From positions 32,001-96,000 of the IMG/VR virus record IMGVR_UViG_2671180292_000001: a stretch of 64,000 bases of DNA. One strand, 5' to 3'. This stretch comes from a virus (lineage: Duplodnaviria; Caudoviricetes). The translations under genes and the position numbers were made by a program. The notes under the pieces are model-generated. The model saw only the letters and a list, made by a program, of their open reading frames with translations. It had not been told where the DNA came from and did not search any database. This document shows positions 5,099-38,852 of this stretch, in pieces; position 1 is the stretch's first letter, and every line of letters starts with the position of its first letter.

Positions 5099-5619
5099 GT
5101 TGCCGCCTTTCTGCGGTTGTAGTTACGGCGCTGTCGCTCTCGGTCGCAGGCCTTGCAGTGGCGACGTCCGTTGCGTCGCGACGTGTTTTCCTCGGTGTAC
5201 TCGTGGCCTTGAGGGCAGTGCGTCTTGGCGGAGCTCATGTCGTGGGCGAGATCACGTCGGCGGACGTTGACCGACTGCGGCACAGGGTCGAGGTGACAGG
5301 GGTTCACGCACTTCTTGTTCTGGCAGAGGTGATCGAGAGTGAGCCCTTCGGGGATCTCCGCCACCATGTGCTCGTAGGCAAAACGGTGCGCCAGGAGGTC
5401 TCGACCACCGATCGAAACCTTGCCGTACCGCTGTCCACTGCCGGTCCAGATCCAGCAATCACCCTGTTCTACCACCTTGGCCCAGAACAGTTCTGCCGCC
5501 GATGGTGGACACCAGAGGGGATCTCCGTGTCGTCGCCAAACCATGTAGTGGCGGCTACAGAAGCCTTTTGAGTCATGCGGCTGCGGGCAGCCGTCTACGT
5601 TGCAGATACGCTTGCCCAT
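5095..5619 (-). CDS. HNH endonuclease, co-oriented, between endolysin and holin
   Basis: CWIWTG, AHRFAYE, LDHLCQNKKCVNPCHL...N motifs; KTHCPQGH zinc domain. Confidence 0.9.
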   Translation of the reverse strand: MGKRICNVDGCPQPHDSKGFCSRHYMVWRRHGDPLWCPPSAAELFWAKVVEQGDCWIWTGSGQRYGKVSIGGRDLLAHRFAYEHMVAEIPEGLTLDHLCQNKKCVNPCHLDPVPQSVNVRRRDLAHDMSSAKTHCPQGHEYTEENTSRRNGRRHCKACDRERQRRNYNRRKAAT

Positions 5620-10629: not shown

Positions 10630-11511
10630 TTAAACCTCCTGTCCTTGTATAATTGTTAAATGACTCGGAGACTTACTCAAGAGGAGATCGACTCTCGTCC
10701 CCCACGTCTCTGCGCCTGCGGCGGCATAGCCCTGAACCGGACCGGAACCCCGCGATGCAGTGCTTGCAAGGAGGCATCGAAACAGGCTTCGCGAACGCGC
10801 TACAGGGACATCCGGCGCGCCAAACGGCCGCCTCGCATCTGCCCCCGATGCGATAAGGAAATCCCCTTCAACCCCGACCGTCCTCTCGCCGCCATTCACG
10901 AGGAGTGTCGCGTCCTTCCAACCAAGTCGAAGGCAGCCAAGAAGCGAGAACGCAAGTGCTGGAAATGCGGCACCAGCGAAGTTATCCACAAGATAGGCAG
11001 GCCGGTCTGCGCCGGTTGCTACGCGCTTGGAACGACCAAGCTGCGCAACTGCGTCGATTGCGATAAGCAATTCAAGACGCGTAACAACTCGACTCGCTGC
11101 AGCCAGTGCAGTTACCGGCGACGCAAGAAGCTGGCCGACCGCAAATGCTCTCGATGTGACACGCTGATCGACTATCGGTCCAGGAACTGCCCGAAGTGCC
11201 CCGCCAAATCTGTCCCTACGGCTCCGATCGGGCACCGGCGGAAAATGCGCTACGGCTACATCGAGATCAAGACCGAAAAAGGATGGCTGCGCGAGCACGT
11301 CCACGTCATGGAGGAGCACATTGGTCGTCGCCTGTTGCCGGGCGAGTCGGTACACCACAAGAACGGGATCAGAGATGACAACCGCATCGAGAACCTCGAA
11401 CTCTGGACCCGAGCCCAGCCCGCCGGTCAGCGCGTGACCGACATGCTCTCCTGGGCGTGGGAAATCATCGACCGGTATGGCGACATGCCGCTGTGACTCG
11501 CCGTGCTCCAT
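10630..11511 (-). other. Putative translated bridging ORF antisense to HNH, from host RBS/ATG to 1 nt before the tail-gene restart
   Basis: GGGAGG-N7-ATG at 11511; frame open to TAA 10632-10630; TTG at 10628. Confidence 0.4.
10660..11496 (+). CDS. HNH endonuclease with multiple CxxC fingers, antisense to the late operon
   Basis: [12 protein letters not shown]...[19 protein letters not shown]; TATAAT 10648-10653 six nt before ATG (leaderless). Confidence 0.9.
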
Positions 11512-22356: not shown

Positions 22357-23061
22357 TTAGGAGGGGTCGAGGACGAGTTCCTGGCAGCCGCACTCCGGCT
22401 CGGGCGGCGCCACGCTGGTCGCGTGGATGTCGAGGTGGTCTTCCGGACCGATGGGGGTCAGCAGCGGGCCAGCGGTCGGCGGGGTCGCGTTGTCGGTGGG
22501 ATCCACCGCATACGGCCCGTTCTGCCAGTTGCCGCCCTTCTCCGTCCGGGCAGTGATCTCGAACGTCGCACCGTCGTTCTCGATCGCGAACGAGTTGAGG
22601 ATCGCCGACTTCACCCAGGGAGCGAGGAAGTAGCCGTACAGGCGGTTGCCGGTCTCCGCGCAGCGCTGCGACGGGATGTCCGACCACACCTCCAAGGCCA
22701 CCCCGCCATCGCAGAGGATTTTCTGCCCGATTCGGTTACCGACGGGGTTGCCCGCGTAGTCGAGGACCGTCTGGTAGCCCGTCATTAGCGTGAACAGGTC
22801 AGGGTCGACCCCACAGAACGTGATCGTGAGGTTGATCCACTTCAACTCGTCGCACGCTTTGTCCGATATGCACAGTTCACCGGCTGCATTTTTCACCTCC
22901 ACCTCGTCGCCTTCTGAAATTTCGGCGGAGTAGGCGACGGAGACGAAGCCCTTGGAGACGACCTGAGAGCACGGACCCTCGACCGGGGTGCCGCACTCGT
23001 CCAGCTTGGTGACCCGCATCACGCGGCCACGCACCGACTGCCAACAAGTCAAGTCGGACAC
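22357..23061 (-). CDS. Major tail (tube) protein
   Basis: MRVTKLDECG, KNAAGELC, FCGVDPD, ALEVWS, YGYFLAPW motifs. Confidence 0.88.
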   Translation of the reverse strand: MSDLTCWQSVRGRVMRVTKLDECGTPVEGPCSQVVSKGFVSVAYSAEISEGDEVEVKNAAGELCISDKACDELKWINLTITFCGVDPDLFTLMTGYQTVLDYAGNPVGNRIGQKILCDGGVALEVWSDIPSQRCAETGNRLYGYFLAPWVKSAILNSFAIENDGATFEITARTEKGGNWQNGPYAVDPTDNATPPTAGPLLTPIGPEDHLDIHATSVAPPEPECGCQELVLDPS

Positions 23062-23426: not shown

Positions 23427-24617
23427 ATGTCGAGGTTTCGGATGTACCCCACGCCGCAGCAGGAGCAGCAGATGCTTCTGCACTGCGCGCACGCCCGGTA
23501 CGTGTGGAACCTCGCTGTCGAACAGCAGTCGTTTTGGCGTCCGGGCCGCAGGTCCGCGCCAGGGTTCGCCGAGCAGTGCCGCCAGCTCACCGAGGCCCGC
23601 GCCGTGTTCGACTGGCTGCGCGCCGGGTCGGTGAACATCCAGCAGCAGGCGCTCAGGGACTTCGCCCAGGCGATGGCGAACTACTTCGCCGGGACGCACA
23701 GGCGGCCGACCTGGCGCAAGGCGGGACGGCATGAGGGATTCCGTGTCGTCGGCAAGGATTACCGCGTACGCAAGGTATCCCGGAAGGTCGGCGAGGTCTG
23801 GGTGCCCAAAGCGGGATGGGTGCGGTTCCGCCTGTCACGCCCGCTTCCACCGGAAGCGAAGTCGTACCGGATCACCCGGGACCGTGCGGGCCGTTGGCAC
23901 GTGGCGTTCGCCGTCGCGCCACACCCGATCCCCGCGCCGGGCACGGGCGAGATAGTCGGGGTGGACCGGGGTGTCGCCGTGTCGGTGGCGCTGTCCACCG
24001 GGGAACTGCTGACCGCGCCAGGCCTGCGCGAGACGGAGAAAGCACGGCTGCGCCGGTTGCAGCGGAAACTCGCCCGAGCTAAGCGAGGATCTAACCGGCG
24101 GGCGCGGGTCAAGCTGGCCATCGCCCGGCTGAGGGCCCGTGAGAGCGATCGGCGCAAGGACTGGGTGGAGAAGACCTCCACCGACCTCGCGCGCCGGTTC
24201 GACATGATCGTCGTCGAGGACCTGAAGATCTCCAACATGATCCGCTCGGCGAAAGGCACCCTCGACGCGCCGGGCCGTAACGTCCGGCAGAAGTCTGGGC
24301 TCAACCGGAGCATCCTCGCCGCCGGGTGGGGACAGCTCGTAACCCGCCTGGAGCACAAGGCTCCGGGAAGGGTCGTGAAGGTCAATCCCGCGTACACGAG
24401 CCAGCGTTGCTCGGCGTGCGGGATCGTGGACCGGGAAGCGCGCGAGAGCCAAGCACGTTACCGGTGCCGGTCCTGCGGATACGCCGCCAACGCTGATGTG
24501 AACGCGGCCAGGAACATCAGGGATACCGCCGCAGGGCATGCGGTGGCTGCGCGGGAAGGGCTTCGGGTTGCCGGGCCGATGCACCGCGAACCTCAGCCCG
24601 TCCTCCTCTCTGTGTAG
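23427..24617 (+). CDS. tnpB: RNA-guided endonuclease TnpB
   Basis: GVDRG, VEDL, TSQRCSACG..CRSCG, NADVNAARNI; RuvC D-E-D intact. Confidence 0.95.
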   Translation: MSRFRMYPTPQQEQQMLLHCAHARYVWNLAVEQQSFWRPGRRSAPGFAEQCRQLTEARAVFDWLRAGSVNIQQQALRDFAQAMANYFAGTHRRPTWRKAGRHEGFRVVGKDYRVRKVSRKVGEVWVPKAGWVRFRLSRPLPPEAKSYRITRDRAGRWHVAFAVAPHPIPAPGTGEIVGVDRGVAVSVALSTGELLTAPGLRETEKARLRRLQRKLARAKRGSNRRARVKLAIARLRARESDRRKDWVEKTSTDLARRFDMIVVEDLKISNMIRSAKGTLDAPGRNVRQKSGLNRSILAAGWGQLVTRLEHKAPGRVVKVNPAYTSQRCSACGIVDREARESQARYRCRSCGYAANADVNAARNIRDTAAGHAVAAREGLRVAGPMHREPQPVLLSV

Positions 24618-25241: not shown

Positions 25242-25730
25242 TTAGACCTCGCGCGTGGACAGAATCATGAAGTCGGCCCCGGCCGCACCGGTGAACACGA
25301 ACTCGTCCTGGAGGGATTCGCCGGCCTGGCCGCCCTTGTCCACGCTCCAGGTCGCCGTCGCCCCTGCGGGGAGCACGACTGCTGGGCCGCCGCCGATGCT
25401 CACGGTGGGCGCCCCGGCGAACACCATGAACGTCACCGACCGGGCCCCGGACGGGATCGTCACCGTGCCAGCGCCGGTCTGCCGCTGCGCCGTGGATGCG
25501 ATCTCCGGGTCCGGGTTGGTCTGCTCGGCGCACACGCCCACGGTGCCGGTCGCCGTGTACTCGGTGACGCCGTCCACCTCGTAGTCCGCCGGGGTGACCG
25601 TGCCCGCGCTGTCGGACTGGTAGCGCCGCAAGAACGGTGTCACAGTGCCGTCAGCAGCCACGTCACAGAGGATCGTGAACTCGACGTCAGGTGCCGCAGT
25701 GCCAGAGATGCTGCCGTTGGTGCCGGACAA
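25242..25730 (-). CDS. Head-decoration family protein (one repeat module plus shared C-terminal domain)
   Basis: DVE..ILCD...PFLRRY...DG.T.YT.TGTVGVC plus RSVTF...TWSV domain. Confidence 0.65.
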   Translation of the reverse strand: MSGTNGSISGTAAPDVEFTILCDVAADGTVTPFLRRYQSDSAGTVTPADYEVDGVTEYTATGTVGVCAEQTNPDPEIASTAQRQTGAGTVTIPSGARSVTFMVFAGAPTVSIGGGPAVVLPAGATATWSVDKGGQAGESLQDEFVFTGAAGADFMILSTREV

Positions 25731-25831: not shown

Positions 25832-26923
25832 CTAGGGCCGGTAGGTCCAGACCAGGAGGTACTCAGACGCGGCGTCCGCCCCCTGGAAGGAAGCGCCCGC
25901 CAGGGTGCCGTCGTCGTCCCCGACGATCGACCATGTAAGCGACGTCCCCGACGGGACCGGCACGGCCGCGCCATCTGTCATGGTCACCAGGACGCTGCCG
26001 GACAGGACGGTCAGGGTGACGCTCTGCAGGCCGGGGAACGCCGCTACCAGGTCCTGGGCGGACGTGCCGGTCACGCGACGTACCCCGGTGTTCAGCGGGC
26101 TGGGCGCCGGCGGGGTGCAGTCTCCACAGACGCCGACGGTGCCAGTCGAGGTGTAGGGCGTGCCGTCGATGGCGTAGTCCGAATAGCCGATGATCTGGCC
26201 GTTCAGGTCGCGCCGGTAGTCCCTGACGAACGGTGTGATCGTGCCATCGCCGGCGGTGTCGCACAGGGGGGTCAGGTCTTGTTCGGGCTGCTCCACCCCG
26301 GTCGGGCACATCGTGATGAACCCGGTCGGGGTGTAGGTGTCCCCGGTGACCGCGTCGACCAGGCGCACGCTGCTGATGGTGCCGTCCGCGGCGTAGGAGT
26401 ATTCGATCAGCACGAGGCCGAGGACCTCGCCTGTCGCCGCATTCAGGTCACAAAACGTCCCGGACACCTGGATCGAACGGGAGTCGCCGCAGGCGATCAC
26501 ACCGGTCGGTGGGGCACCAGCTGAGAACGCTCCCGTCGTGAGGTTGATCCACCCGGTCTGCGCCACCACCCCAGCGCAGTCCCGCACCACGGTGACCGCT
26601 ATCGGCGTCCCATCCGGCAAACAAAGACCCAGCGTGGCCACCGGCTCGGTCGGCTGCTCGCAATCCGACACGGTACCGCCGCCGCCCGACGCGCACGGGC
26701 CGAGCGTGCCCTGCGGCACATAATCGGCCCCGGTCGCCGGGTCCACCACCCGTGTGCCGACCCGCTGCCCGGTACTGGCGTCGTAAACCGGCTCCACTAG
26801 TACCGTCGCCGCCGTACTACCGTCGGGCAGGACGTCGCACAGGACGATCGCCTCCACGTCCAGCCTCGGCGTCGCGTTCGCGCCGGTGACGATGACCGGG
26901 CCCTGCCCGCAACAACCACTCAC
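25832..26923 (-). CDS. Head-decoration family protein (about four modules plus shared C-terminal domain)
   Basis: About 190-aa block homologous to the 1844-aa protein (GLCLPDGTPIAV...GVEQPE.DL..LCDTAGDG). Confidence 0.7.
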   Translation of the reverse strand: MSGCCGQGPVIVTGANATPRLDVEAIVLCDVLPDGSTAATVLVEPVYDASTGQRVGTRVVDPATGADYVPQGTLGPCASGGGGTVSDCEQPTEPVATLGLCLPDGTPIAVTVVRDCAGVVAQTGWINLTTGAFSAGAPPTGVIACGDSRSIQVSGTFCDLNAATGEVLGLVLIEYSYAADGTISSVRLVDAVTGDTYTPTGFITMCPTGVEQPEQDLTPLCDTAGDGTITPFVRDYRRDLNGQIIGYSDYAIDGTPYTSTGTVGVCGDCTPPAPSPLNTGVRRVTGTSAQDLVAAFPGLQSVTLTVLSGSVLVTMTDGAAVPVPSGTSLTWSIVGDDDGTLAGASFQGADAASEYLLVWTYRP

Positions 26924-28693: not shown

Positions 28694-31600
28694 CTAGCTG
28701 GCCGTGATGCGGGTGTAGGCGACGGTGACGGTGCCCGGACCCGCCTCGGTCATGAAAGTCCCGGTGAGGGCCGCATCCTCGTCCCGGACGACGGACCACG
28801 TCACCGACTCCCCCGCGTACAGCGTTGATGTGCCATCCGCGGTGGTTATCAGGGCGGTACCGCCGTGCGCAGTGACGGTGACCGACTGCACAAGGACATG
28901 GGCCGACAGGTCCCACGTCTGCCCGGGGGCGAGTTCCACCCGGTGGGCCTGCACCCCGCGCGCTGAGGGTGCGCCCCCGACCGGGCACTCCACAGGCGCG
29001 ACGGGCTCGTACGGGCCAGTCAGGTCCGGCAGGTAGGTGCCCAGACTGGCCAGCTCACCAGAGCAGGAATCCACGGCGATTAGTTCGACGTAGTCGACAT
29101 CGCCGATCCCGTCGCCATCTGTGTCGTCGCAGCGGCACGCCTCGATGACGTGCTGCGCCGTGCACTCGGGAGCCTCACCCTCCGCGGTGGCGCATTGGCC
29201 GGGCTCTCCGGTGACGGTGTAGGGGGTGGTGCCGTCCAGAGCGGTGTCGGCCGAGGCGATGACCTCCCCGGCCGTGTTGTACCGCAGGTGCCGCAGGAAC
29301 GGCGTGGTGCCGTCCTCCGTGACGTCGCAGAGCGCCAGGAGCTCCACGTCCGGACCGGGCTCCGGGTCCGGGCACGTGGTGATGCTCGCCCCGCCCGGGA
29401 CCGGTACGGGCCCCCACGTGAGCGGGTCCACGTAGTCGACGGACAGCCGCTCCCCGGTGGCGGTGTCGTAGGTGACCTCGGCGAGGATGCGCGCGAGGAC
29501 GCTGCCCGTGGTGTTGTCGACCACGCACATGGAGACCAGCTCGACGTCCCGGCCCTCGGCTGGGTCCGGCTGGCACCGGCCGACGGTCCCGGTCGGCACG
29601 TAGGGCGTGGCACCGTCCAACGCAGTGTCGATGACCCCTGCGACCTGTCCGGCGCTGCCGTAGGAGAAGTGCCGCAGGAACGGGACGCTCGGCCCGTCCT
29701 CGGGGGTGTCGCACAGGACGACGGGCTCGACGTCGAGGCCCCGGCCGCCGCCCGCGCTGCAACCGGTGCCGCACGGCACCTGCTGGCCCTCCGGGGCGTC
29801 CGTGGCCACGCCGTCCGCGTCCAGCCACGACACGCTTACCGTGCCGTCGCACCCCTGGCTGTAGACCTTCGTGACCTGCGTCTCCTGGCAGGACTGCGCG
29901 GGGGTGAGCGTCCACTCCCGGCCGTCGACGTCCTCCACCACCATCGGCCCGTAGACGGTCTGTGTGCCGCCGGTCGAGCCGACGAACCACGCGCAGCCCG
30001 GCTGATTCTGCGCGGACCAGGTCGCCCCGGACGGGTCGAGGTTGGTGAGCGCGAGCGCCCAGTTGTGGTGCATCCCGAGATTGCCCGGGGTGCCCTCGCC
30101 GCAGGGGCCGCCGGCGAACGACCGCCCGCCGTCCCCAATGACCTCCTCCCCGTTCACGATCCAACTCGTGATGGTGAGTCCGCCCGTGGTCGGCTGGCAC
30201 GGGAACTGCCCGCCCGGGCCCTGGATACCGCCGCACTGGCCCGGCACGCCGCCAATCAACGAGGTGTTGTCGTAGCTCGCCTCGGAGCGCTCCACGATGC
30301 CCACGCACTCCGTGGAGAACGCGACCGGGCACGCGAGCTCCTGGCAGAGGACCAGTTCCGCGCCGGCCGGGAGCTCCACCTCGTCCCCGGTCGTCGGGTC
30401 GGTCAGCCGCTGCACCACCCGGTCGCCCGTCTGGTCGTCGTAGACGCGCTCCACCAGCACCTGGCCGAGGATTTCGCCGTCGGCGTCCTGGATGCACAGG
30501 ACGTCCGGCTCGACGTCCACGCGATGTTCCGGCGGCGGGGGCGGGCAGCACTCCCCGCCTCCCGCAGCCTGGCACTGGCCGACCTGCCCGGTCACCTCGT
30601 ACGGGGCGCCGTCCAGGGTGGTGTCGCTGACCTGGACGACCTCGCCGGTGGCGCAGTCGACGGTGAGCGTGCGCAGAATCTGGGTGGCGCACCCGGCGAC
30701 GTCGTAGGCGTAGCTGATGTTAAAGGCGTCGGCGGTCCAGGACTTGCGTGTGACGCCGTGGCCGGTCTCCAGATCGAGGTGCACGCCGATCTGCCCGGCT
30801 GCGAGCTGGACGGCGGGGACGCTCGCTGTCACCGTCAGGACGCCGTCCCAGCCCGCAGGCACATCAGTCGGCACGCTGCGGTTGCCCAGCATCTGGCGGC
30901 CGGCGTCGAACAGCCTGAGCGCGCCGGAGTACCCGACTCCGGCGTCCGGCCCGAGCTGGGTGACATGCACCGACACGGTGACGGTGGCGGTGCCGTCGTC
31001 GCAGGCAGGCCGATCGGCCTGCACGCTCGCCTCGACCGTGCGGTAGGTCTGCTCAATGTTCCCCGTGCCGGGCTCGGCCGGGAAGGCCAGGCTCCCGCCG
31101 GACCACAGGGCGGCGCCGCCGCCCGCAAGTGCGCGGTAGGTGCCGGTGCCGCCGATCGGCGGGAACATGCCGCCGGGCGGGGCGGGCAGGTCGGTGACAG
31201 TGGGCTCGCCAGCAGCGCCGTCGGTGGGGATGTCGCACAGCAGGACCGTGGTGGAGTTACGGCACGGCTCTGCCGGGCAGCACTGGCCGCCTGCGGTGGT
31301 GCAGGCGCCGATCTGTCCCACGGGGTTGTACGGCTGCCCGTCCGAGGTGGTGTAGGTGACAGAGGTGACCTCGCCGCTCTGGCAGTCGGTGACCACGGTG
31401 GCCAGGACCTGCTGGGCGCAGCCGTCCTGGTCGTAGGCGACGGTGACGGTGGCCTCGTCGAGCACCCAGCCGCCGACGCGGGCGCCGCCGGGGCCGCTGC
31501 CGGGGCAGGCGGCCAGCGCGAGCTGGTAGGTCTCCATCAGGCCGAACAGGCGGACGGTCCCGGCGGCGAGGTCGGCGGCGGGCACCTGCCCGGTGACCGT

Positions 31601-34228
31601 GAGGGTCTGGACGGTGCCGACAGGGATGCTGCTCGGCGTGACACCGGCGGCGGCGATCTGTGTCCCGCCCACGAGCATGCGGAAGCTGCCCGTGCCCTGG
31701 CAGCCGTCGTCAGGACCGGTCCGCTCGACGCGGATGCTGGCGGTGACGGTGGCGGTCCCGGCGTCGCATGCGGGCCGGTCGGCCTGCACGCTCGCGGCGA
31801 AGGTGCGCACGAGCTGGGAGGTGCCGTCGCCGGGTGGGGCGTCGTCGGGCGGGATGATCAGACTGCCGCCCGACCACAGGGCGGCGGCGCCGCCGGCGAC
31901 GGGTTCCTGCCCGGTGCCCGGGAAGACGCCGGCCGGATCATTGTCGGTGACCGTGGGGGCAGGCCCACCGTCGCCCGGCAGGTCGCACACCAGCAGCGTC
32001 GAGGTGTCACGGCACGGCTCGGGGCACACGCCAATGGTCGCGCCGCCCGGGACCGCGACTGGCCCGCCGGTGACGGCGTCGACCAGCCGCGGCGGCCCGG
32101 CCGGGTTGCCGTCGCCGTCGTAGACCTGCTCGGCGCGGATGTGCTGCAACACGCTGCCGTCGGTGTTGATGACGCACAGCGGCCACGTCTCCACATCGGC
32201 GCCGCCGGTCTCGGACCGGCAGGCGACCAGCTCGCCGCCGTCGGGGAGGTCGGCCTCCTCGCCCGTGGACAGGTCGATCAGGCGCTGGACGGTCAGCTCG
32301 CCGGTCTGGTCGTCGTAGACGCGCTCTGCGAGCACCTGCCCGGTGATCCCGCCGCCGGCGTCCTGGATGCACAGCAGCACGGTCTCGACGTCGAGGCGGG
32401 TTTCCGGAGGCGGCGCGGGGCAGCATTCGGCGACCGGCTCGCACAGGCCGACCTCGCCGGTGGGGGTGTACGGCTCACCGTCGAGGGTCGTGTCCGTGGT
32501 GGCGACCACCTCGCCGCTCTCGCAGTCGACGGTGACGGTGCGCATGAACTGGCGCGTCTGGACCATGGCGATGTCGAGACGGCCGGTGATCCAGTTCGCG
32601 CCGCCAATGTCGCGGACTTCGATCTCGATGGTGTTGGGGCCGGCGGTGACGGGGATCTGCGCCGTTCCCGAGGTGGCGGGCTGGTTCCACTGCCCGTACA
32701 TGCCTGCGTCGGTGTTGTTCACTCGCACCCGGGCGCCGCCGTCGCCGCGGAACCCGACCGAGGAGACCGTCGCGACCCCGTCCTGCGGCGCGAGGAAGGT
32801 CTTGCGCATCACCCACCGCAGCGGGGCGCTCTCATACCCGGCCCAGGGCCCGACGTTGGGCCCGGCCGACATGTCGGAGCGGGCGCCCATGTAGGCGGGG
32901 TTCCCGGGCGGGTGCACGGCCGGGTACGGCAGCGGCTGCTCGGGGCCGAAGCCCGGCTGGCCGGTGAAGGCCACGATCTCCCAGCCGTCGTCGCCGGGCC
33001 GGTTGATCGGGTCGAACACCGTCAGGGCTTCCTGCTCGGCGGTGTCGCACAGCAGGACGGTGGTGGTGTCGCGGCAGGGTTCGGCGTCGGGCTGGCACAG
33101 GCCAACCTCGCCGGTGGGGGTGTAGGGGGTGCCGTCCAGCAGGTAGTCGGAGTGCCCGGTGATCTGCCCGTTCTCGTCGCGGGCGTAGTCCCGCACGAAC
33201 ACCGTCACGCCGCCGTCGCCGGCGGTGTCGCACATCTGCAGCAGGTCACGCTCGGGCTGCTCCACCCCGGCGGGGCAGGTGGTCACCTCGCCCTGCGGGA
33301 CGTAGGTGGCGCCGCTGGTCGCGTCGACCAGCCGCACGGACGCGACGTCGCCGTCCGGGCCGTAGGTGTACTCGACCAGCACCAGGCCCAGCACGTCGCC
33401 GGTGACGGGGGCGACGTCGCAGAAGACGCCGGCGGTAGTGATGTTGCGCGGGTTGCCGCACGCCATCGTCCCGGCCGGCGGATCCCCCGCGCTGTAGGCG
33501 CCGGTGGTGAGGTTGAGCCAGCCGTCCTGTCTGACGGTCCCGTCGCAGTCGCGGGTGACCACCACCGCGATCGGCGTGCCGTCCGCCAAGCACAGGCCCA
33601 CGGTCGCGGTGGGGGTTGTCGGCTCTTCACACTCGGTCGAGGTCGCGCACACCCGCACGGTGCCGGTGACCAGGTGCGGGGCCTGCCCGTCCAGCGCGAC
33701 GTCCTCATAGCTGGCCGTGCCCGCCAGGAACGTGTACCGGCGGAGGAACGGCCCCGAGTCGTCACACAGCTGCAGCGTCTCCGACTCCGGGCAGCCGTAC
33801 GTGCACTCCACTGGCGACACAGGCGCATACGGCGTTGAGGGGTCCGACTGGTAGGTCAGGACCAGCTCAGCCGTGCCATCCGCGTGCACGCACCACAGCT
33901 CGCTGTAGGTGGCGTCAGCGGCGCCGTCGCCGTCGGTGTCATCGCACCGCTGCACACAGATCGTGTCGACGCAGCCCGTCTCGCATGGCCCGGCATCGGC
34001 GGGGAGCACACCCGGGGTGAACACGCCAGCGGTGTCGAGCCAGCCGACAACAGCGGGATCCTCGGCCTCCTGACCGCATTCGACGCAGCCGGAGCGGACG
34101 ACAGCGAGGATCGTGGTACCGTCCGCCCGGCACAGCGCGGTCGAGGCGATCGACGGGGCGCAGCAGGTCGTGACCTCAACCGGCTCACCGCCCCCGCCAG
34201 GCGAGCAAGGAATCGGCTCTACGGCCAC
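28694..34228 (-). CDS. Giant Cys-rich modular protein (1844 aa), probable capsid decoration / head fibre
   Basis: Many ~55-60-aa modules (DVE..LC...LDG.PY.P.G.VG.C) with inserted beta-sandwich domains; between capsid and tail genes; no signal peptide seen. Confidence 0.7.
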   Translation of the reverse strand: MAVEPIPCSPGGGGEPVEVTTCCAPSIASTALCRADGTTILAVVRSGCVECGQEAEDPAVVGWLDTAGVFTPGVLPADAGPCETGCVDTICVQRCDDTDGDGAADATYSELWCVHADGTAELVLTYQSDPSTPYAPVSPVECTYGCPESETLQLCDDSGPFLRRYTFLAGTASYEDVALDGQAPHLVTGTVRVCATSTECEEPTTPTATVGLCLADGTPIAVVVTRDCDGTVRQDGWLNLTTGAYSAGDPPAGTMACGNPRNITTAGVFCDVAPVTGDVLGLVLVEYTYGPDGDVASVRLVDATSGATYVPQGEVTTCPAGVEQPERDLLQMCDTAGDGGVTVFVRDYARDENGQITGHSDYLLDGTPYTPTGEVGLCQPDAEPCRDTTTVLLCDTAEQEALTVFDPINRPGDDGWEIVAFTGQPGFGPEQPLPYPAVHPPGNPAYMGARSDMSAGPNVGPWAGYESAPLRWVMRKTFLAPQDGVATVSSVGFRGDGGARVRVNNTDAGMYGQWNQPATSGTAQIPVTAGPNTIEIEVRDIGGANWITGRLDIAMVQTRQFMRTVTVDCESGEVVATTDTTLDGEPYTPTGEVGLCEPVAECCPAPPPETRLDVETVLLCIQDAGGGITGQVLAERVYDDQTGELTVQRLIDLSTGEEADLPDGGELVACRSETGGADVETWPLCVINTDGSVLQHIRAEQVYDGDGNPAGPPRLVDAVTGGPVAVPGGATIGVCPEPCRDTSTLLVCDLPGDGGPAPTVTDNDPAGVFPGTGQEPVAGGAAALWSGGSLIIPPDDAPPGDGTSQLVRTFAASVQADRPACDAGTATVTASIRVERTGPDDGCQGTGSFRMLVGGTQIAAAGVTPSSIPVGTVQTLTVTGQVPAADLAAGTVRLFGLMETYQLALAACPGSGPGGARVGGWVLDEATVTVAYDQDGCAQQVLATVVTDCQSGEVTSVTYTTSDGQPYNPVGQIGACTTAGGQCCPAEPCRNSTTVLLCDIPTDGAAGEPTVTDLPAPPGGMFPPIGGTGTYRALAGGGAALWSGGSLAFPAEPGTGNIEQTYRTVEASVQADRPACDDGTATVTVSVHVTQLGPDAGVGYSGALRLFDAGRQMLGNRSVPTDVPAGWDGVLTVTASVPAVQLAAGQIGVHLDLETGHGVTRKSWTADAFNISYAYDVAGCATQILRTLTVDCATGEVVQVSDTTLDGAPYEVTGQVGQCQAAGGGECCPPPPPEHRVDVEPDVLCIQDADGEILGQVLVERVYDDQTGDRVVQRLTDPTTGDEVELPAGAELVLCQELACPVAFSTECVGIVERSEASYDNTSLIGGVPGQCGGIQGPGGQFPCQPTTGGLTITSWIVNGEEVIGDGGRSFAGGPCGEGTPGNLGMHHNWALALTNLDPSGATWSAQNQPGCAWFVGSTGGTQTVYGPMVVEDVDGREWTLTPAQSCQETQVTKVYSQGCDGTVSVSWLDADGVATDAPEGQQVPCGTGCSAGGGRGLDVEPVVLCDTPEDGPSVPFLRHFSYGSAGQVAGVIDTALDGATPYVPTGTVGRCQPDPAEGRDVELVSMCVVDNTTGSVLARILAEVTYDTATGERLSVDYVDPLTWGPVPVPGGASITTCPDPEPGPDVELLALCDVTEDGTTPFLRHLRYNTAGEVIASADTALDGTTPYTVTGEPGQCATAEGEAPECTAQHVIEACRCDDTDGDGIGDVDYVELIAVDSCSGELASLGTYLPDLTGPYEPVAPVECPVGGAPSARGVQAHRVELAPGQTWDLSAHVLVQSVTVTAHGGTALITTADGTSTLYAGESVTWSVVRDEDAALTGTFMTEAGPGTVTVAYTRITAS

Positions 34229-34231
34229 TGG

Positions 34232-34720
34232 TCACCCCTCAGTGTCGGTGTGTGCCTGGCGGCGGTGCGCGGACGCGCGTCCTTCGGTTGCGTAGGTGCG
34301 TTCGCAGATCCCGCAGGGATACCGCTCGGTGGTCTGCTCGGCCGCCGCGGTGTCCTCGGTGGGTTCTGGTGTCACCGCAGGCTCGGGATGCAGCCCAGCC
34401 TCGCCCGCAGGCACGGGCTCGATCACGTGCTCGATCACGGGCTCGACATCCCGCCCGGGCTCGGCCTCCCCGTCGGTTGGTGGTGGTGCCTGGCCCCGGC
34501 TGTCCCCCTCCCAAGGCACGGCAGCAGGACCAGGCACCACGTACGGACGGCCATCCACTAGGGCTTCCGTGAGCAATGCCTCGGGGATGGCCGTGAACAA
34601 GGCGGCCGGGACGCCAAACTCGGTCTCAGACACAGTCCGCAGCTTGGGGGTCTGAGCCACGGCCCACCGGGCGAACTCCCGCCGCAGATGCCGGGCAGGC
34701 TGAACACGAATCATGCTCAT
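34232..34720 (-). CDS. Head-region protein with C-terminal C2H2 zinc finger
   Basis: ATGA overlap with small capsid stop; YPCGICERTYATEGRASAHRRQAH. Confidence 0.7.
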   Translation of the reverse strand: MSMIRVQPARHLRREFARWAVAQTPKLRTVSETEFGVPAALFTAIPEALLTEALVDGRPYVVPGPAAVPWEGDSRGQAPPPTDGEAEPGRDVEPVIEHVIEPVPAGEAGLHPEPAVTPEPTEDTAAAEQTTERYPCGICERTYATEGRASAHRRQAHTDTEG

Positions 34721-35535
34721 GGGCAGGTCGTCACCTTCACCGCGCACACAACGCACGTCGTCGCCGGAACATAAGTCCTCTCAGCTAAGACGCGCCTGTC
34801 GTTAAACCGAAGATCAAGAGATGCGCCGCTGCTGTTCGGGATGATGTCCAGCGGCCCCCGCCGAACCTCCACCGGACCAGAGATGTACAGCCACGCCGTA
34901 CCCGGCTCCGCCGGAGTCCCATCGGGGCCAGTGTTCGCCGCCGAATACCCGGCGCCGACGACGACGCAATGCCCGGTGAGCGTCCGCAGCCTCTCCCCTT
35001 CCCGGTGGGCGAGGTTGCAGCAACCCAGCAATGCCGCCGCCCCGGCCGGAACGTGCAGCACGCCAGTACCGCCATAGGACTCGGCTAGGCAGCCCTCCAA
35101 CGCGGCCACCCCTTGGGCGATGTTGACCGGCCCACCAGCCGGGGTCAGATCAACCGCATCAGGAGCGAGGACGTTCGTCCAGAACCACTCCTCCAACGCG
35201 TGCTGTTCCCCGAGCAGCATCATCGCCCGGACGTGCTCGATCGCTTCCTCGTAGCCCAGGCCGAACGTTGAGCACTCCACCCCCGCGTACAGCGTGACCG
35301 GCCCGGCCGATTCGACCTCGGGCCGGCAGAACTCTTTCGCGGGGACCGGGCCACCGTCTGGAGGGCACCAGTCAGTGTCACGGACGGGGCAGCACCCGAG
35401 ACCGAGCCACTCGACGCCGAGCAGCTCGTGTGGGTCGTCCACGTCGATGACCCTGGTACAGCCGCCGAGAATGCCGTCTGGCAGCGGCGTCCCCGCAATG
35501 GCCTCGACGCGGCGGCGCATTCCAGCAGGGGGCAT
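34717..35535 (-). CDS. Small capsid protein (major capsid pentamer-like)
   Basis: EQHALEEWFW, GVAALEG.LA..YGG.GVLH, VVVGAGY, LAERTY motifs; next late gene after the large capsid. Confidence 0.75.
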   Translation of the reverse strand: MPPAGMRRRVEAIAGTPLPDGILGGCTRVIDVDDPHELLGVEWLGLGCCPVRDTDWCPPDGGPVPAKEFCRPEVESAGPVTLYAGVECSTFGLGYEEAIEHVRAMMLLGEQHALEEWFWTNVLAPDAVDLTPAGGPVNIAQGVAALEGCLAESYGGTGVLHVPAGAAALLGCCNLAHREGERLRTLTGHCVVVGAGYSAANTGPDGTPAEPGTAWLYISGPVEVRRGPLDIIPNSSGASLDLRFNDRRVLAERTYVPATTCVVCAVKVTTCP

Positions 35536-35537
35536 CG

Positions 35538-37073
35538 TTACCCCCCCGCAATCTGTCGGTCGAAACCTCTATGAATAGAGGAGCGTTCAACAGAATGAGG
35601 GGGCCGACGGCGTTGCGACCGCCGCCGACCCTGACCGAACCCTTGTGTGGAAGGAGTCCGGCCATGAGCGAGCTTACGCTGCCTGGAAACACCACAGCGG
35701 ACAGCCCTGCCGTGAACGGCAAGCCCGCAGTGAACTGTGGTGACTGCGGCGTCGTCATCTCCGCTAAGACGCGGAAAGCTCACGCAAACTGTTTCCGGCA
35801 GTACCGGAACCCGGAATGGATCGCCGCCGACCCCAATCGCTGCGCTATGCCCCTCCTGAGCGGGGAACGCTGCCCCGAGCCGATCAAAGGCCGCGACTGG
35901 TGCAACAAGCACCTGCAGCGGTGGAATAAGCATGGCGACCCCACCGACACCAGCGGACGCCGGGAGAAGGGCGAACTCCTCGCCTTGGTCCAGCAGGCCG
36001 CCAAGGGAGACACCGACGAGTGCATCCTCGCCCCGTGCGAGCGCAGCAGGCCGAGCCTGATGTACCGGGGTAAGCCCATGGGGGCGGCTCGCGCCGTCTG
36101 GTGGGAAGCCAACGGCAGCGACCCCGGAGACAAGCACCTGCGGTTCACGTGCGGGCGCGGCGACGACGGCTGCATCAATATCCGGCACCTTGAGCTGGAC
36201 GTCCCCGACGCGGATGCAGTCTGCGATGTGTGCGGCGATCCCCCTACGCCGGACAACCGGCTCAAGGGCGGCAAGCACATCAACTACTGCTACCAGTGGG
36301 CTCGCAGGAACAACGCCAGCAACCCACAGTGCATCACCCCAGGCTGTGATCGCCCCTCGAAGGGCGGTGAGATCAAGGTCTGTGACCGCTGCTACCAGCG
36401 CATCCAGCGCGGAAACGACCCCGCCGAGCGGCCGTTCCACCAGCAGAACAAGGGGAAGCAGTGCAAGGTCTCCTGGTGCGAGGAAGATGCCGAGGTGCTC
36501 GGCTGGTGCCGAGACTGCTACGGCTGGTGGTGGCGTAACGGCGGCGACCCGAATGATCGTCGCTACCGGTACAACCGCAGCGTTGACGACATCATGGCGA
36601 TCGTCATGGGCATCACCCCAGACCCTGCGACGGGATGCCGGGACAGCACGGGCATTTTCCCCCAGGATCCGTGCGGGTATCCGGTGACCAGCGTCGAAGG
36701 CAAGAGCGGCGTGAGGGTCACGCGACTGGTGCTCAGCCTCAAGCTGGGCAGGCCGCTGAAGCGTGCCACGCATGCCTGCCATACGTGCGATTACCCGCCG
36801 TGTGTCGAGCCGTCCCACCTGTGGGAAGGCACCCCGGCCGCCAACAGCCATGACCGGGACGCGAAGGGCCGGGGAGCTCGCGGGGAAGGCAACGGCCGGT
36901 CGCGTCTCAACAAGGGCGCGGTCCGGTTCATCCGGGACACGTGCATGCTCGGCACGCACCAGTTCGACAGCAACGTCGCCGAGTTGGCGCACATGTTCGG
37001 GGTCAAGCCGCAGGCGATCCGGGATGTGGTGCATCGCCGGACGTGGCGTGACGTGCCGTAGAGCATTCGGCAT
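35538..37073 (-). other. Putative translated bridging ORF antisense to HNH, from host RBS/ATG to 2 nt before the small-capsid start
   Basis: AGGAGGTGA RBS + ATG 37073 (MPNALR); frame open to TAA 35540-35538; ATG at 35535. Confidence 0.4.
35664..37061 (+). CDS. HNH endonuclease with zinc fingers, a degenerate and an intact HNH domain, C-terminal HTH; antisense to late operon
   Basis: AAGGAG RBS; CINIRHL (degenerate), CHTCDYPPCVEPSHLWEGT..N (intact); ELAHMFGVKPQAIRDVVHRRTW. Confidence 0.88.
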   Translation: MSELTLPGNTTADSPAVNGKPAVNCGDCGVVISAKTRKAHANCFRQYRNPEWIAADPNRCAMPLLSGERCPEPIKGRDWCNKHLQRWNKHGDPTDTSGRREKGELLALVQQAAKGDTDECILAPCERSRPSLMYRGKPMGAARAVWWEANGSDPGDKHLRFTCGRGDDGCINIRHLELDVPDADAVCDVCGDPPTPDNRLKGGKHINYCYQWARRNNASNPQCITPGCDRPSKGGEIKVCDRCYQRIQRGNDPAERPFHQQNKGKQCKVSWCEEDAEVLGWCRDCYGWWWRNGGDPNDRRYRYNRSVDDIMAIVMGITPDPATGCRDSTGIFPQDPCGYPVTSVEGKSGVRVTRLVLSLKLGRPLKRATHACHTCDYPPCVEPSHLWEGTPAANSHDRDAKGRGARGEGNGRSRLNKGAVRFIRDTCMLGTHQFDSNVAELAHMFGVKPQAIRDVVHRRTWRDVP

Positions 37074-37144
37074 CTGCCCTTCACCTCCTCTCATAGGCAT
37101 GGGGCCCCGTCCGGCAGATTCGGGCGGGACCCTGTGCGGGGAGA

Positions 37145-38785
37145 TCAGGGGATGGGGCAGGTGAGTTCGGTCTGCGCGCCGGTGGCACCGGACGGGCAGA
37201 TGGGGAGGGTGATGAGGCGCAGGTCCGGCCCCCTGTTGATCAAGGCGACGCACTCTTCGCTAAAGATTGCGGTGTAGTCGTTCGTCTTGAACTTCTCCTG
37301 CGAGTGGATCACGCCGAGGCTGATCTCACCGCCACGGCCGATCTGCAGCGACCCCGCCACGTACATCAGCATCTGGATCTCAGCCGGCCATACCGTCGCC
37401 GGAGTAGGACCGCCGATCTCGTCCGGGACTGCCGGACCCAGACCGCGGGCCCACTGGATACCGACACCCAGGGTCGCGAACAGGTTGACGAGGTCCTGCA
37501 CGCGGACCTCGGACAGGGAGCGGCCGTTCTGCCGGGCCAGGTCCGCCAGCATCAGTGAGCGGGACCACCAGGGCAGGACAACCTCGATGTTGATGCTGTC
37601 ACACAGGGAGTGCCGCTCCACCATGTCCGCGGCCTGCAGCGCGATAGCCGCGTAGATCGCGCTGAGGGCGCCGAAGGTCTCCGGGAGCGCGACCGGGGTT
37701 GCCTGCGCGACGGCCTGCTCGAACAGGTGCTGCCGGATCCGCAGCTCGTGGGCGACCATGACGGCCTTCTGGTACCAGGCGACCAGCTCAGGGAAGTGCC
37801 GCTGCGTCAGAATGCCCGATTCGAGACAGACACCGACGGCGTCACATCGGACTTCGACGGGCTCCGGGCAGGGGATCTTGAAGCAGGGCTTCTCTGTGCC
37901 CGCAATGTCGTCCGCCTCGGTGTGGACGAACGTCATGCTGGCGACATCCAGCGACGGGATCGGGAAGTAGCGCAGCCCGCCCCGGGCGAGCTGGATCTCC
38001 GGCGCGTCCCACAGCATCTCCGGGCAGGCGACCTGCGCCAGGTCGTACACCGTCTCCGACGGCGCGCACCAGCCGCCGGACGCGACGATGTCCCCGCCAG
38101 ACAGGCGGGACTGGTCGGCGGCGAGGATGACCGCCCGCGTGCCCTCCGTACCACTGGAGGAGTCGTTGATGATGAGGGATTTGTCGAACGGCAGCCGGTA
38201 CGACGCGGTCAGACCGACGCCCCCGCCCGCCGTTTTGAGGGCGTTGGCGCGGCGGATGATGCCCTCGGTGACGCCGTCCATGTCCAGCGCCTGGCCCGGC
38301 TGGTAGCCGGGGACGTCCACGCTGGCGGTGATCTCCGGGCGCGGGTTCGGGTCCGGCGGCAGCACACGCGGCTGCCTGCGGCGGACCCCGGACAGGTCCA
38401 GCACCGGCCGGCGCGGGGCGATGACGGCGGTGGCAGCGACCTCGCGGGGCTCCGGCTCCGGGTCGGGGGTGGCGGCGGCTTCCACCTCGCCCTCCCCCTC
38501 GCCGTCCTCGGCCTCATCGTCGTCGTCGGGGGTGGTGCCGCGGACCTGGGCGGCGAGGGCGTCGATCTCGGCGGCGGCCTGCTCGGCGGCTTCCCTGCGG
38601 GCCTGCTGCTCGGCGCGGATGTCGTTCACCGCCGTGGCGAGCGTGCGGAGCTGCTCCAGATCGTCGGGGGTGACGGTGGAGGAGTTGGAGCGGGCGTCGA
38701 AAGCCTGGACCGCGCCGTCAAGCAGCGCGGCGAGTTCGTCGTCGGGCAGGCTGGTGATGTCCTCGGGGAGCTCGAATGCGTCCAC
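37145..38785 (-). CDS. Major capsid protein (hexamer-like) with N-terminal scaffold region
   Basis: ASGGWCAPSETVYD, PEIQLARGG, KPCFKIPCP, NDYTAIFSEE motifs; acidic helical N-terminus. Confidence 0.9.
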   Translation of the reverse strand: MDAFELPEDITSLPDDELAALLDGAVQAFDARSNSSTVTPDDLEQLRTLATAVNDIRAEQQARREAAEQAAAEIDALAAQVRGTTPDDDDEAEDGEGEGEVEAAATPDPEPEPREVAATAVIAPRRPVLDLSGVRRRQPRVLPPDPNPRPEITASVDVPGYQPGQALDMDGVTEGIIRRANALKTAGGGVGLTASYRLPFDKSLIINDSSSGTEGTRAVILAADQSRLSGGDIVASGGWCAPSETVYDLAQVACPEMLWDAPEIQLARGGLRYFPIPSLDVASMTFVHTEADDIAGTEKPCFKIPCPEPVEVRCDAVGVCLESGILTQRHFPELVAWYQKAVMVAHELRIRQHLFEQAVAQATPVALPETFGALSAIYAAIALQAADMVERHSLCDSINIEVVLPWWSRSLMLADLARQNGRSLSEVRVQDLVNLFATLGVGIQWARGLGPAVPDEIGGPTPATVWPAEIQMLMYVAGSLQIGRGGEISLGVIHSQEKFKTNDYTAIFSEECVALINRGPDLRLITLPICPSGATGAQTELTCPIP

Positions 38786-38811
38786 GGGTCTCTCCCTCTT
38801 GCGGGGTGAGA

Positions 38812-38852
38812 GCCCGGCCCACATACCAGCGGCTACCTAAAAGTTCATGCTA
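38812..38852 (-). promoter_or_regulatory. Late-gene leader motif with upstream -10 (TAGCAT)
   Basis: Minus strand TAGCAT..TAGCCGCTGGTATGTGGGCCGGGC. Confidence 0.65.

Follow-up and report, generated by a model that had tools for sequence, protein, structure and literature searches.

Free-standing HNH homing endonuclease genes of phages, such as the T4-type mob and seg genes, must fit into host expression to persist, and the examples of coupling described for them, including the nrdA/mobE overlap, concern translation of the endonuclease itself (PMC2988022). Homing endonuclease ORFs in group I introns and inteins represent other ways in which a selfish nuclease gene avoids harming the host gene it invades, and these rely on RNA or protein splicing. 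Adjacent genes can also be translationally coupled through overlapping or adjacent stop and start codons (ATGA, TAATG, GTGA), and GC-rich genomes contain shadow ORFs and long antisense ORFs (PMC3454372, PMC8850804). The locus analysed here touches on each of these systems. As with free-standing homing genes, an HNH-type nuclease gene lies between conserved essential genes and is present in some relatives and absent in others at the same site, but it is antisense to the operon and is spanned by an operon-strand ORF that joins its neighbours. Nothing is spliced; ribosomes are instead proposed to read across the insert on the other strand. The ends of such bridging ORFs show the stop/start motifs of coupled genes or gaps of 1-3 nt, although coupling would be passed through a 200-500 codon ORF with no evident protein function, inserted together with a mobile gene. 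The frame relation and composition signature are those of shadow ORFs, and GC richness is what makes a stop-free frame cheap to attain, yet the lack of stops depends on orientation and the ends are tied to neighbouring gene boundaries. Our literature searches found no description of such an arrangement.

We examined a 64,000-nt window of a Caudoviricetes genome (Duplodnaviria; IMG/VR record IMGVR_UViG_2671180292_000001, positions 32,001 to 96,000). The original prediction, that a ribosome-binding site and ATG near the stop of an antisense HNH gene open a 511-codon frame running to the start of the small capsid gene, is correct in all its stated features (Table 1). The HNH stop codon TAG (37059-37061) lies 9 nt from the bridge ATG and reads on the - strand as a CTA codon of the bridge, whose product begins MPNALR. 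About 126 nt of the open frame lie upstream of the likely HNH start, ATG 35664, which is preceded by GGAAGGAG 6 nt upstream and shares its start and SD with two homologues. The "small capsid gene" belongs to a family annotated as major capsid pentamer protein in several Microbacterium phages. HNH no.1, the first such cassette named in the prediction, was likewise confirmed.

Table 1. Features of the two antisense HNH loci in the window.
Position	Strand	Feature	Supporting observations
37145..38824	-	Major capsid (hexamer) gene; stop TGA 37147-37145	phrog_777 major head protein, E 2.5e-155; relatives annotated "major capsid hexamer protein"
37102..37132	-	Predicted stem-loop between the hexamer stop and the SD	Window z -1.4 (weak); related loci L007 z -6.6, L014 z -3.2; empty allele L002 z -6.5; in relatives the SD also pairs with a CCUCC-like stretch just after the hexamer stop
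37081..37090	-	GAGGAGGTGA Shine-Dalgarno, 7 nt before ATG 37073; relic or duplicate of the pentamer gene's start region	Same position after the hairpin as (G)GGAGGTG + 5-7 nt + pentamer start in most of the 10 empty alleles (not L010 or L012); L004 ctatGAGGAGGTGggcaagGTGCC vs window ctatGAGAGGAGGTGaagggcagATGCC
35538..37073	-	Bridge (relay) ORF: ATG 37073-37071, 511 codons, stop TAA 35540-35538; codon-aligned antisense frame of the HNH gene	No internal stop, against 7 and 23 stops in the other two frames (22 internal, not counting the hexamer TGA); no Pfam or PHROG match
35664..37061	+	HNH homing-endonuclease gene no.2, 465 aa from ATG 35664 (the longer ORF starts at 35571); stop TAG 37059-37061	phrog_1872 E 9e-22, phrog_59 E 2e-14, phrog_6254 E 4e-13, over residues 333-495 of the 496-aa ORF; GC3 0.85; homologues at the same site in L007 and L014
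35536..35663	+	128-nt HNH leader between the HNH start and the pentamer start; open in the bridge frame	The ~70 nt nearest the HNH start are conserved in three alleles
35538..35547	-	G-run (SD-like GGGGGGG) plus bridge stop TAA, 2 nt (CG) before the pentamer ATG	Predicted to be paired in the late-strand RNA (z -3.6); L007 GGGGTGATTTAAgagATG, L014 GGGGTGATCTGAcGTG
34717..35535	-	Capsid pentamer-type gene, 272 aa, start ATG 35535	phrog_779 E 2e-70; tblastn hits annotated "major capsid pentamer protein" in Microbacterium phages
10660..11496	+	HNH endonuclease gene no.1, 278 aa, antisense among tail genes	PF13392 47.3 bits; phrog_20891 E 9.5e-20
10630..11511	-	Bridge ORF of HNH no.1: GGGAGG + 7 nt + ATG 11511, 293 codons, TAA 10632-10630, 1 nt before TTG 10628	No aligned antisense stop in 278 HNH codons
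9639..10628	-	Late-strand gene downstream of HNH no.1, 329 aa, TTG start	AGGAGG upstream; no PHROG match

Assignment of gene no.2 to the HNH endonucleases (HNH_3-like homing type) rests on the PHROG profiles and on tblastn hits to annotated HNH endonucleases in 447 phage records. Pfam searches (E ≤ 0.01) gave no match for the HNH, the bridge, or the hexamer and pentamer proteins, and a genome search with PF13392 (HNH_3) at E ≤ 0.1 found HNH no.1 and a sense-oriented HNH but not this gene; the L007 homologue reached only 16.6 bits. A pattern that may correspond to the HNH_3 motif, H..C.H...C..P.HL..GT...N, is visible in the sequence. Megablast of the region against phage records found only a 47-nt match. 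A scan of viral contigs with the single HNH protein found no relative, whereas profile scans did; a scan of metagenome contigs with the HNH profile found none, and a viral-contig scan with HNH no.1 gave one partial relative.

Taken alone, the window does not exclude chance. In a genome of 67% GC the codon-aligned antisense frame of a Leu- and Ser-poor gene is often open, and a rival view is that the bridge is a chance shadow ORF on which no selection acts, with the SD and ATG left over from the pentamer start and the stop falling in the SD/spacer because that region is richer in A and T and SD-like sequences contain TGA. The bridge carries the composition signature of such a frame (GC1 0.83, GC3 0.61) and has no match in Pfam or PHROG. 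Only sense TTA, CTA and TCA codons create stops in this frame; these make up 0.50% of 22,742 codons in 60 confident genes, and the HNH is poor in Leu and Ser, so that from its Leu/Ser content and genome codon usage the probability of no stop is about 0.18 (0.18-0.45 per allele). Of the 60 confident genes of at least 150 aa, 14 also have no aligned antisense stop, and 2 of 15 crude ORFs of at least 300 aa in the window are fully open, a statistic that does not separate chance from selection. Many lone antisense genes other than HNHs in the sequences designated G000 to G003 are also spanned by open aligned frames, although these end 6 to 465 nt from the next start. Up to 59 of 460 frames (12.8%) have a stop within -4 to +3 nt of a gene start, an upper bound since this null was contaminated by real upstream genes.

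Comparison with related loci argues against chance. In 10 of 14 related loci the hexamer and pentamer genes are adjacent, 3 carry the HNH and 1 carries another gene, which is the presence/absence polymorphism expected of a free-standing homing gene. The empty alleles are mostly arranged as stop, hairpin, (G)GGAGGTG, 5-7 nt and start, and the left junction of the window matches this through the start codon, marking the SD and ATG of the bridge as the old pentamer start region. The other two HNH-bearing alleles, L007 and L014 (60-62% amino acid identity), share the design: the HNHs of the three alleles are 60-74% identical in amino acids and 66-74% in nucleotides, with only 54-60% identical codons at identical residues, and each allele has GAGGAGGTGA, a start, 3 codons and then CTA. 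There is no internal stop over 511, 336 and 340 codons, against 7-23 stops in the other frames, and the stops lie 2, 3 and 1 nt before the pentamer start (TAA-CG-ATG in the window, TAA-GAG-ATG in L007, TGA-C-GTG in L014), although leader lengths differ by non-multiples of 3. Phage Mischief19 carries a different antisense gene at the same site, with a terminator-like hairpin and an own SD for the pentamer rather than a clean bridge.

The layout also recurs. HNH no.1 has the same design (TAA-T-TTG), and a third cassette in this phage group lies in G002 between the major tail protein gene and the phrog_7999 gene and reads TAA, 5 nt, ATG ... GTGA, and the three empty alleles at that site read TGAccATG, TGATG, and TAA + 7 nt + GTG, with motifs of the same kind directly between the two host genes. 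All 3 antisense HNH cassettes of this phage group are stop-free. GTGA is the stop/start overlap recorded at L022. Among unrelated contigs, L055 reads TAA-ac-ATG, 195 codons, TAATG, with an HNH GC3 of only 0.61, and L057 ends in ATGA. Over 7 alleles, a neighbour-based expectation was 6.03 stops and none was observed.

To ask whether openness depends on orientation, we surveyed 76 usable homologous HNH loci from viral contigs. No aligned antisense stop was found in 6 of 14 antisense-embedded HNHs, against 3 of 62 controls (Fisher p 8e-4). A GC3-calibrated Poisson model expects 0.78 for the antisense-embedded genes, where 6 were observed (P 1.5e-5), and 3.02 for the controls, where 3 were observed; openness of the antisense-embedded genes is more frequent than codon usage predicts. 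The stop-free genes include genes with GC3 of 0.49 and 0.53, where 4.4 stops are expected, and five of the six have stop/start overlaps or gaps of at most 33 nt at both junctions (TGATG, TAATG, GTGA). Orientation classes were derived from our own crude gene caller, and flanking genes were checked by PHROG for only 7 loci. Three sense-oriented HNHs in G000, G002 and G003, one of which had an aligned antisense stop inside the likely gene, were too few to serve as a separate control. A quick, poorly resolved tree (53 of 79 forks open) scatters the bridged HNHs, with 9 changes for 12 rows. On balance we consider a chance shadow ORF unlikely. The layout is not universal, however: eight of the 14 antisense-embedded homologues have antisense stops, including the tight insertions L073 (8 stops) and L090 (2 stops) in contigs of 59-64% GC, and a bridge is therefore not required for viability.

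We propose, with moderate confidence, that a free-standing HNH cassette inserted backwards exactly at the translation start region of the pentamer gene, leaving the ancestral SD and start codon on the hexamer side, where they now open a frame kept free of stops by the absence of TTA, CTA and TCA codons from the HNH. Late-operon ribosomes would start at the old site, travel 1.5 kb across the insert, terminate within the second SD-like G-run and reinitiate at the pentamer ATG. Such a relay would preserve the ancestral hexamer-to-pentamer translational link and keep the late mRNA covered by ribosomes, limiting Rho-type polarity, decay and pairing with HNH mRNA. Our analysis establishes the anatomy, its conservation and recurrence, and the orientation-specific lack of antisense stops; translation of the bridge, reinitiation, dependence of the pentamer on upstream translation, the fitness benefit, and cleavage of the empty allele by the HNH with copying of its own gene remain inferences. 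Support for coupling is in silico only: the downstream start region is predicted to be paired in the late-strand RNA in the window, L007 and L055 (z -3.6, -3.0 and -4.0), but the fold of L014 is not better than shuffles (z +1.3), and these structures could equally serve the HNH mRNA on the other strand. It is also possible that the pentamer initiates independently from its own SD-like G-run, and a 511-aa nonsense polypeptide made at capsid-operon level is a cost.

Two other views of the open frame appear very unlikely. The first is that it encodes a functional antisense protein, a true overlapping gene born de novo. The bridge has an SD and start and is conserved as open in three alleles, and translated long antisense ORFs are reported in GC-rich Pseudomonas (PMC8850804). 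However, its length varies from 336 to 511 codons with the domain content of the HNH itself, and bridges of different cassettes are unrelated because they mirror different HNH sequences, sharing only their positions, a start at the upstream stop and an end at the downstream start; with only three alleles, any constraint on the bridge protein cannot be separated from that of the HNH. The 511-aa product is probably a by-product. The second is that the frame serves control of the HNH, with ribosome-covered late transcripts running antisense to shut off or limit its expression late in infection. Antisense orientation places the HNH under convergent late transcription, and homing genes are noted to need tight regulation, antisense segD being probably barely expressed (PMC2988022). 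Yet antisense transcription alone would do this without an open frame, and this view explains neither the stop/start overlaps with both neighbours nor why the bridge begins at the relic start of the downstream gene.

The original prediction interpreted the locus as one instance of a general, possibly undescribed strategy in which homing endonucleases invade start codons of essential operon genes in antisense and keep a translated bridge that preserves coupling and creates de novo overlapping proteins. This interpretation is partly supported: independent recurrence, conservation across diverged alleles, insertion at the start region of the downstream gene and the specificity of stop-free frames for antisense-embedded HNH genes agree with it, whereas translation, preserved coupling and a functional de novo product remain conjectural and the arrangement is not a universal rule. 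In its broadest form, which we regard as about as likely as not, antisense-inserted homing endonuclease cassettes in phage late operons carry an evolved ribosome relay frame, kept stop-free across the whole selfish gene and tied by stop/start overlaps to both neighbours, so that ribosomes pass from the upstream to the downstream host gene as if the insert were not there. This would be a general, undescribed way for a mobile gene to be non-polar in the "wrong" orientation, and a steady source of long translated nonsense proteins from which new genes could arise.

If the relay is real, it explains how selfish nuclease genes can settle backwards between tightly coupled essential phage genes without starving the downstream gene. 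It would add a rule to phage genome annotation, where long antisense ORFs over homing genes are now discarded as artefacts, and would give a natural design for inserting cargo in antisense without polar effects. It would also show selection acting on a frame only to keep it open, a clean case for studying how overlapping and de novo coding sequences begin.

The late genes of this 118.5-kb, 67% GC provirus record, of which the window covers bases 32001-96000, run on the - strand. Reading along that strand, the major capsid hexamer gene is followed by a stem-loop, the sequence GAGGAGGTGA, a 7-nt spacer and an ATG, from which the frame stays open for 511 codons and closes with a TAA separated by CG from the ATG of the next gene, whose relatives are annotated 'major capsid pentamer protein' in several Microbacterium phages. 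An HNH endonuclease gene (no.2) occupies the opposite strand, with GGAAGGAG lying 6 nt upstream of its likely start and its stop lying 9 nt from the ATG of the spanning, or bridge, frame. The original prediction had described a ribosome-binding site and ATG next to an antisense HNH gene and an open frame running to the start of a small capsid gene, and every element of that observation is confirmed.

Coordinates of the features discussed (positions in the window unless a locus is named)
Feature	Position	Strand	Description
Major capsid hexamer gene	38824..37145	-	phrog_777, E 2.5e-155
Stem-loop region between hexamer stop and pentamer-type SD	37074..37147	-	corresponding regions: L007 2901..2983; L014 4367..4448; L002 6903..6985
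SD of the bridge	37090-37081	-	GAGGAGGTGA
Bridge frame over HNH no.2	ATG 37073; TAA 35540-35538	-	511 codons
Capsid pentamer-type gene	ATG 35535	-	272 aa; phrog_779, E 2e-70
HNH gene no.2	likely start ATG 35664; stop TAG 37059-37061	+	phrog_1872 E 9e-22; phrog_59 E 2e-14
Extra N-terminal module of HNH no.2	35664..36200	+	178 residues
Serine codons of HNH no.2 counted over	35664..37058	+
HNH gene no.1	10660..11496	+	PF13392 47 bits; phrog_20891
Bridge frame over HNH no.1	ATG 11511; TAA 10632-10630	-	293 codons
Gene downstream of HNH no.1	TTG 10628	-
Sense-oriented HNH gene	5116..5490	-	PF13392 34.9 bits; phrog_1872 E 7e-25
Transposase gene	23427..24617	+	phrog_506, E 8e-82
Major tail protein gene	22357..23061	-
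Cys-rich repetitive protein gene	28694..34228	-	1844 aa; phrog_18824 (unknown function)
Smaller paralogues of the Cys-rich protein	25832..26923; 25242..25730	-	phrog_18824 (unknown function)
Antisense gene gp15 of Streptomyces phage Mischief19 (L003)	L003 4291..4854		187 aa, hypothetical
Bridge start junction of L055	L055 3262..3270

Understanding whether such a frame is more than a by-product of composition requires comparison beyond this window. The bridge is the codon-aligned antisense frame of the HNH gene (GC1 0.83, GC3 0.61, with an HNH GC3 of 0.85), and in that frame only the sense codons TTA, CTA and TCA give stops. In 60 confident genes of the genome (22,742 codons) these codons make up 0.50%, and 14 of the 60 genes (4 of the 29 with at least 300 aa) have none. 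Since the HNH has few Leu (24) and Ser (20) residues, the probability of finding no stop is about 0.18. Long shadow ORFs are also carried by the hexamer gene and by the gene for the 1844-aa protein, which lies with its two smaller paralogues downstream of the capsid genes and has a 1562-aa shadow ORF on the + strand. Taken alone, the bridge could therefore be an artefact of a GC-rich genome. The serine codons of HNH no.2 are AGC in 15 of 20 cases, while AGC and AGT together make up 33% (AGC alone 29%) of Ser codons genome-wide; avoiding TCN keeps Ser codons one step further from an antisense TGA, which could be part of stop avoidance or simply inherited.

Our comparison of 14 related loci (the window, phages TurkishDelight and Mischief19, ten IMG/VR loci and a Streptomyces carpinensis contig) indicated where the start of the bridge came from. 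In ten of these loci the hexamer and pentamer genes are adjacent, with 64-151 nt between them, and most are arranged as stop, stem-loop, (G)GGAGGTG, 5-7 nt and pentamer start. The left junction of the window (ctatGAGAGGAGGTGaagggcagATGCC) matches that of the closest empty allele, L004 (ctatGAGGAGGTGggcaagGTGCC). So the SD and ATG of the bridge are the old pentamer start region, left on the far side of the insert, and the pentamer gene now starts behind a second, SD-like G-run.

Two other loci carry a homologous HNH gene at the same site: L007, in a 101.7-kb provirus designated G002, and L014, from S. carpinensis. The three HNH alleles are 60-74% identical at the amino-acid level and 66-74% at the nucleotide level, yet only 54-60% of identical residues use the same codon, and many Leu and Ser positions are not shared. 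AGC accounts for 6 of 8 Ser codons in L014, and AGC or AGT for 9 of 13 in L007. All 3 HNH-bearing alleles have the same design, in which a hairpin, GAGGAGGTGA and a start codon (ATG, GTG and ATG) are followed by three codons and then CTA, the TAG of the HNH read backwards. No internal stop occurs over 511, 336 and 340 codons, while the other two frames hold 7-23 stops, and the bridge stop lies 2, 3 and 1 nt before the pentamer start. The HNH leaders are 128, 126 and 124 nt long, and the frame therefore survives length changes that are not multiples of three. It also stays open across an N-terminal module of the window's HNH no.2 that L007 and L014 lack, which is rich in CxxC pairs and contains a weak second HNH-like match (phrog_4842, residues 160-216 of the 496-aa ORF).

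The layout recurs at other sites in this phage group. HNH no.1 sits antisense among tail genes and is spanned by GGGAGG, 7 nt and an ATG that opens its own bridge, whose TAA lies 1 nt before the TTG of the next gene. In G002, a third cassette sits antisense between the major tail protein gene and the phrog_7999 gene. Its HNH has 216 aa and is 30% identical to no.2, and the layout reads TAA, 5 nt, ATG, 273 codons and a TGA that overlaps the next GTG (GTGA). The three empty alleles of that site join the two genes directly as TGAccATG, TGATG, and TAA + 7 nt + GTG; again, a start codon coupled to the upstream stop now opens the bridge. Other genes offer a contrast. An antisense transposase gene in the late operon of the window, just upstream of the major tail protein gene, has one aligned antisense stop and no full bridge, and may be a recent arrival. 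A further HNH gene of the window, in the same orientation as its neighbours, has at least one TCA codon, an aligned antisense stop, inside the likely gene. In Mischief19 a different antisense gene occupies the hexamer/pentamer site, with a terminator-like hairpin, no SD for the spanning ORF and a 25-nt run into the pentamer gene, and this junction seems to be a hot spot for antisense inserts.

To ask whether the absence of stops depends on orientation, we carried out two surveys with controls. A profile of the HNH domain found 27 further viral-contig loci, and two of the GC-rich ones were antisense-embedded. One, L055, has an HNH GC3 of 0.61 and an upstream gene of phrog_5107, and reads TAA-ac-ATG, 195 codons, TAATG. 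The other, L057, has an open aligned frame ending in ATGA on the next start, although its first ATG lies about 150 nt after the upstream stop. From the codon usage of neighbouring genes, the seven antisense alleles identified at that stage should carry 6.0 antisense stops and have none (P 0.0024), whereas ten other homologues in loci of at least 60% GC, most of them sense-oriented and none antisense-embedded, have 13 where 7.5 are expected.

A second profile returned the best 80 of 594 relatives, from which we dropped L071, which is L055 itself, and L086, where the ORF call was only 15 aa; two controls were duplicates. With orientation assigned by a simple gene caller based on GC3 or ORF length, the 79 loci fell into 43 sense-embedded, 14 antisense-embedded, 17 at strand switches and 5 without both flanks. 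No aligned antisense stop occurred in 6 of 14 antisense-embedded genes, against 3 of 62 controls (one-sided Fisher p 8e-4) or 2 of 41 when only sense-embedded genes were considered (p 0.002). A Poisson model of stops against GC3, fitted on the controls, predicts 3.02 stop-free controls, and 3 were seen; for the antisense set it predicts 0.78, and 6 were seen (P 1.5e-5). Two of the six have an HNH GC3 of 0.49 and 0.53, where 4.4 stops are expected. Five of the six are tied to both neighbours: L072 starts at TGATG and ends 13 nt past the next ATG, L076 has TAG + 8 nt + ATG and ends in TAATG, L081 runs from GTGA to GTGA, L103 starts 33 nt after the upstream stop and ends in GTGA, and L117 reads TAA-ac-ATG and ends TAA-t-ATG. 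The sixth, L139, is partial. In contrast, eight of the 14 antisense-embedded genes do have stops. Three of these lie in 38-44% GC contigs, three have large gaps to a neighbour, and two are tight insertions in 59-64% GC contigs, L073 with 8 stops and L090 with 2. The layout is therefore common but not obligatory. Flank genes gave PHROG matches for 6 of 10 proteins tested and lie at different sites, except for L072, which shares its upstream gene family with L055. A quick, poorly resolved tree scatters the bridged genes, with 9 changes for 12 rows and end branches of about 0.9 changes per site.

Predicted RNA folding adds weak support for a ribosome relay across the insert. A conserved stem-loop lies between the hexamer stop and the pentamer-type SD, with the loop ACCUGAA in L007 and in the empty allele L002, and around it an outer stem is predicted to pair the SD with a CCUCC-like stretch right after the hexamer stop in L007, L014 and L002 (z -3.2 to -6.6); the fold of the window is weak (z -1.4). 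This may be a coupling or dosage device for the hexamer:pentamer ratio. The pentamer start region is predicted to be paired in the window, L007 and L055 (z -3.0 to -4.0), but L014 is no better than shuffles, and it is equally possible that these structures belong to the HNH mRNA. In L055, L117 and L139 the bridge ATG is the reverse complement of a conserved His codon (CAT) two residues from the HNH C-terminus, so the family may be predisposed to this layout. In L055 the two stops also overlap as TTAA.

By PHROG profiles the gene is an HNH homing-type endonuclease, although it does not reach Pfam HNH_3, and it shows the presence/absence pattern of a free-standing homing gene. The frame has the composition of a shadow ORF, but the expectation that it be no more open than chance allows does not hold. 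A review of T4 mobile elements states that invading endonuclease genes must fit the expression programme of the host, and discusses coupling only for translation of the endonuclease itself (PMC2988022). Searches of the literature, which beyond that review extended to listings and abstracts, found no description of an operon-strand ORF bridging an antisense homing gene. What appears to be new is the combination of three familiar elements, a free-standing homing gene, translational coupling and an antisense overlapping frame.

The proposal that homing endonucleases invade operon start regions in antisense and keep a translated bridge that preserves coupling is supported in part. Recurrence, conservation and orientation-specific avoidance of stops are demonstrated by the comparisons, whereas translation of the bridge and its function are inferred from sequence alone. 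The best-supported account is a relay, in which ribosomes finishing or loading at the end of the upstream gene would start the bridge at the displaced start codon, read across the backwards HNH gene in the only frame that can cheaply be kept open, stop on top of the start of the next gene and reinitiate there. In this view, the relay would restore the direct coupling seen in empty alleles and would also spare 0.6-1.5 kb of late mRNA from being untranslated, untranslated stretches of this kind being known in general to be subject to Rho-dependent polarity.
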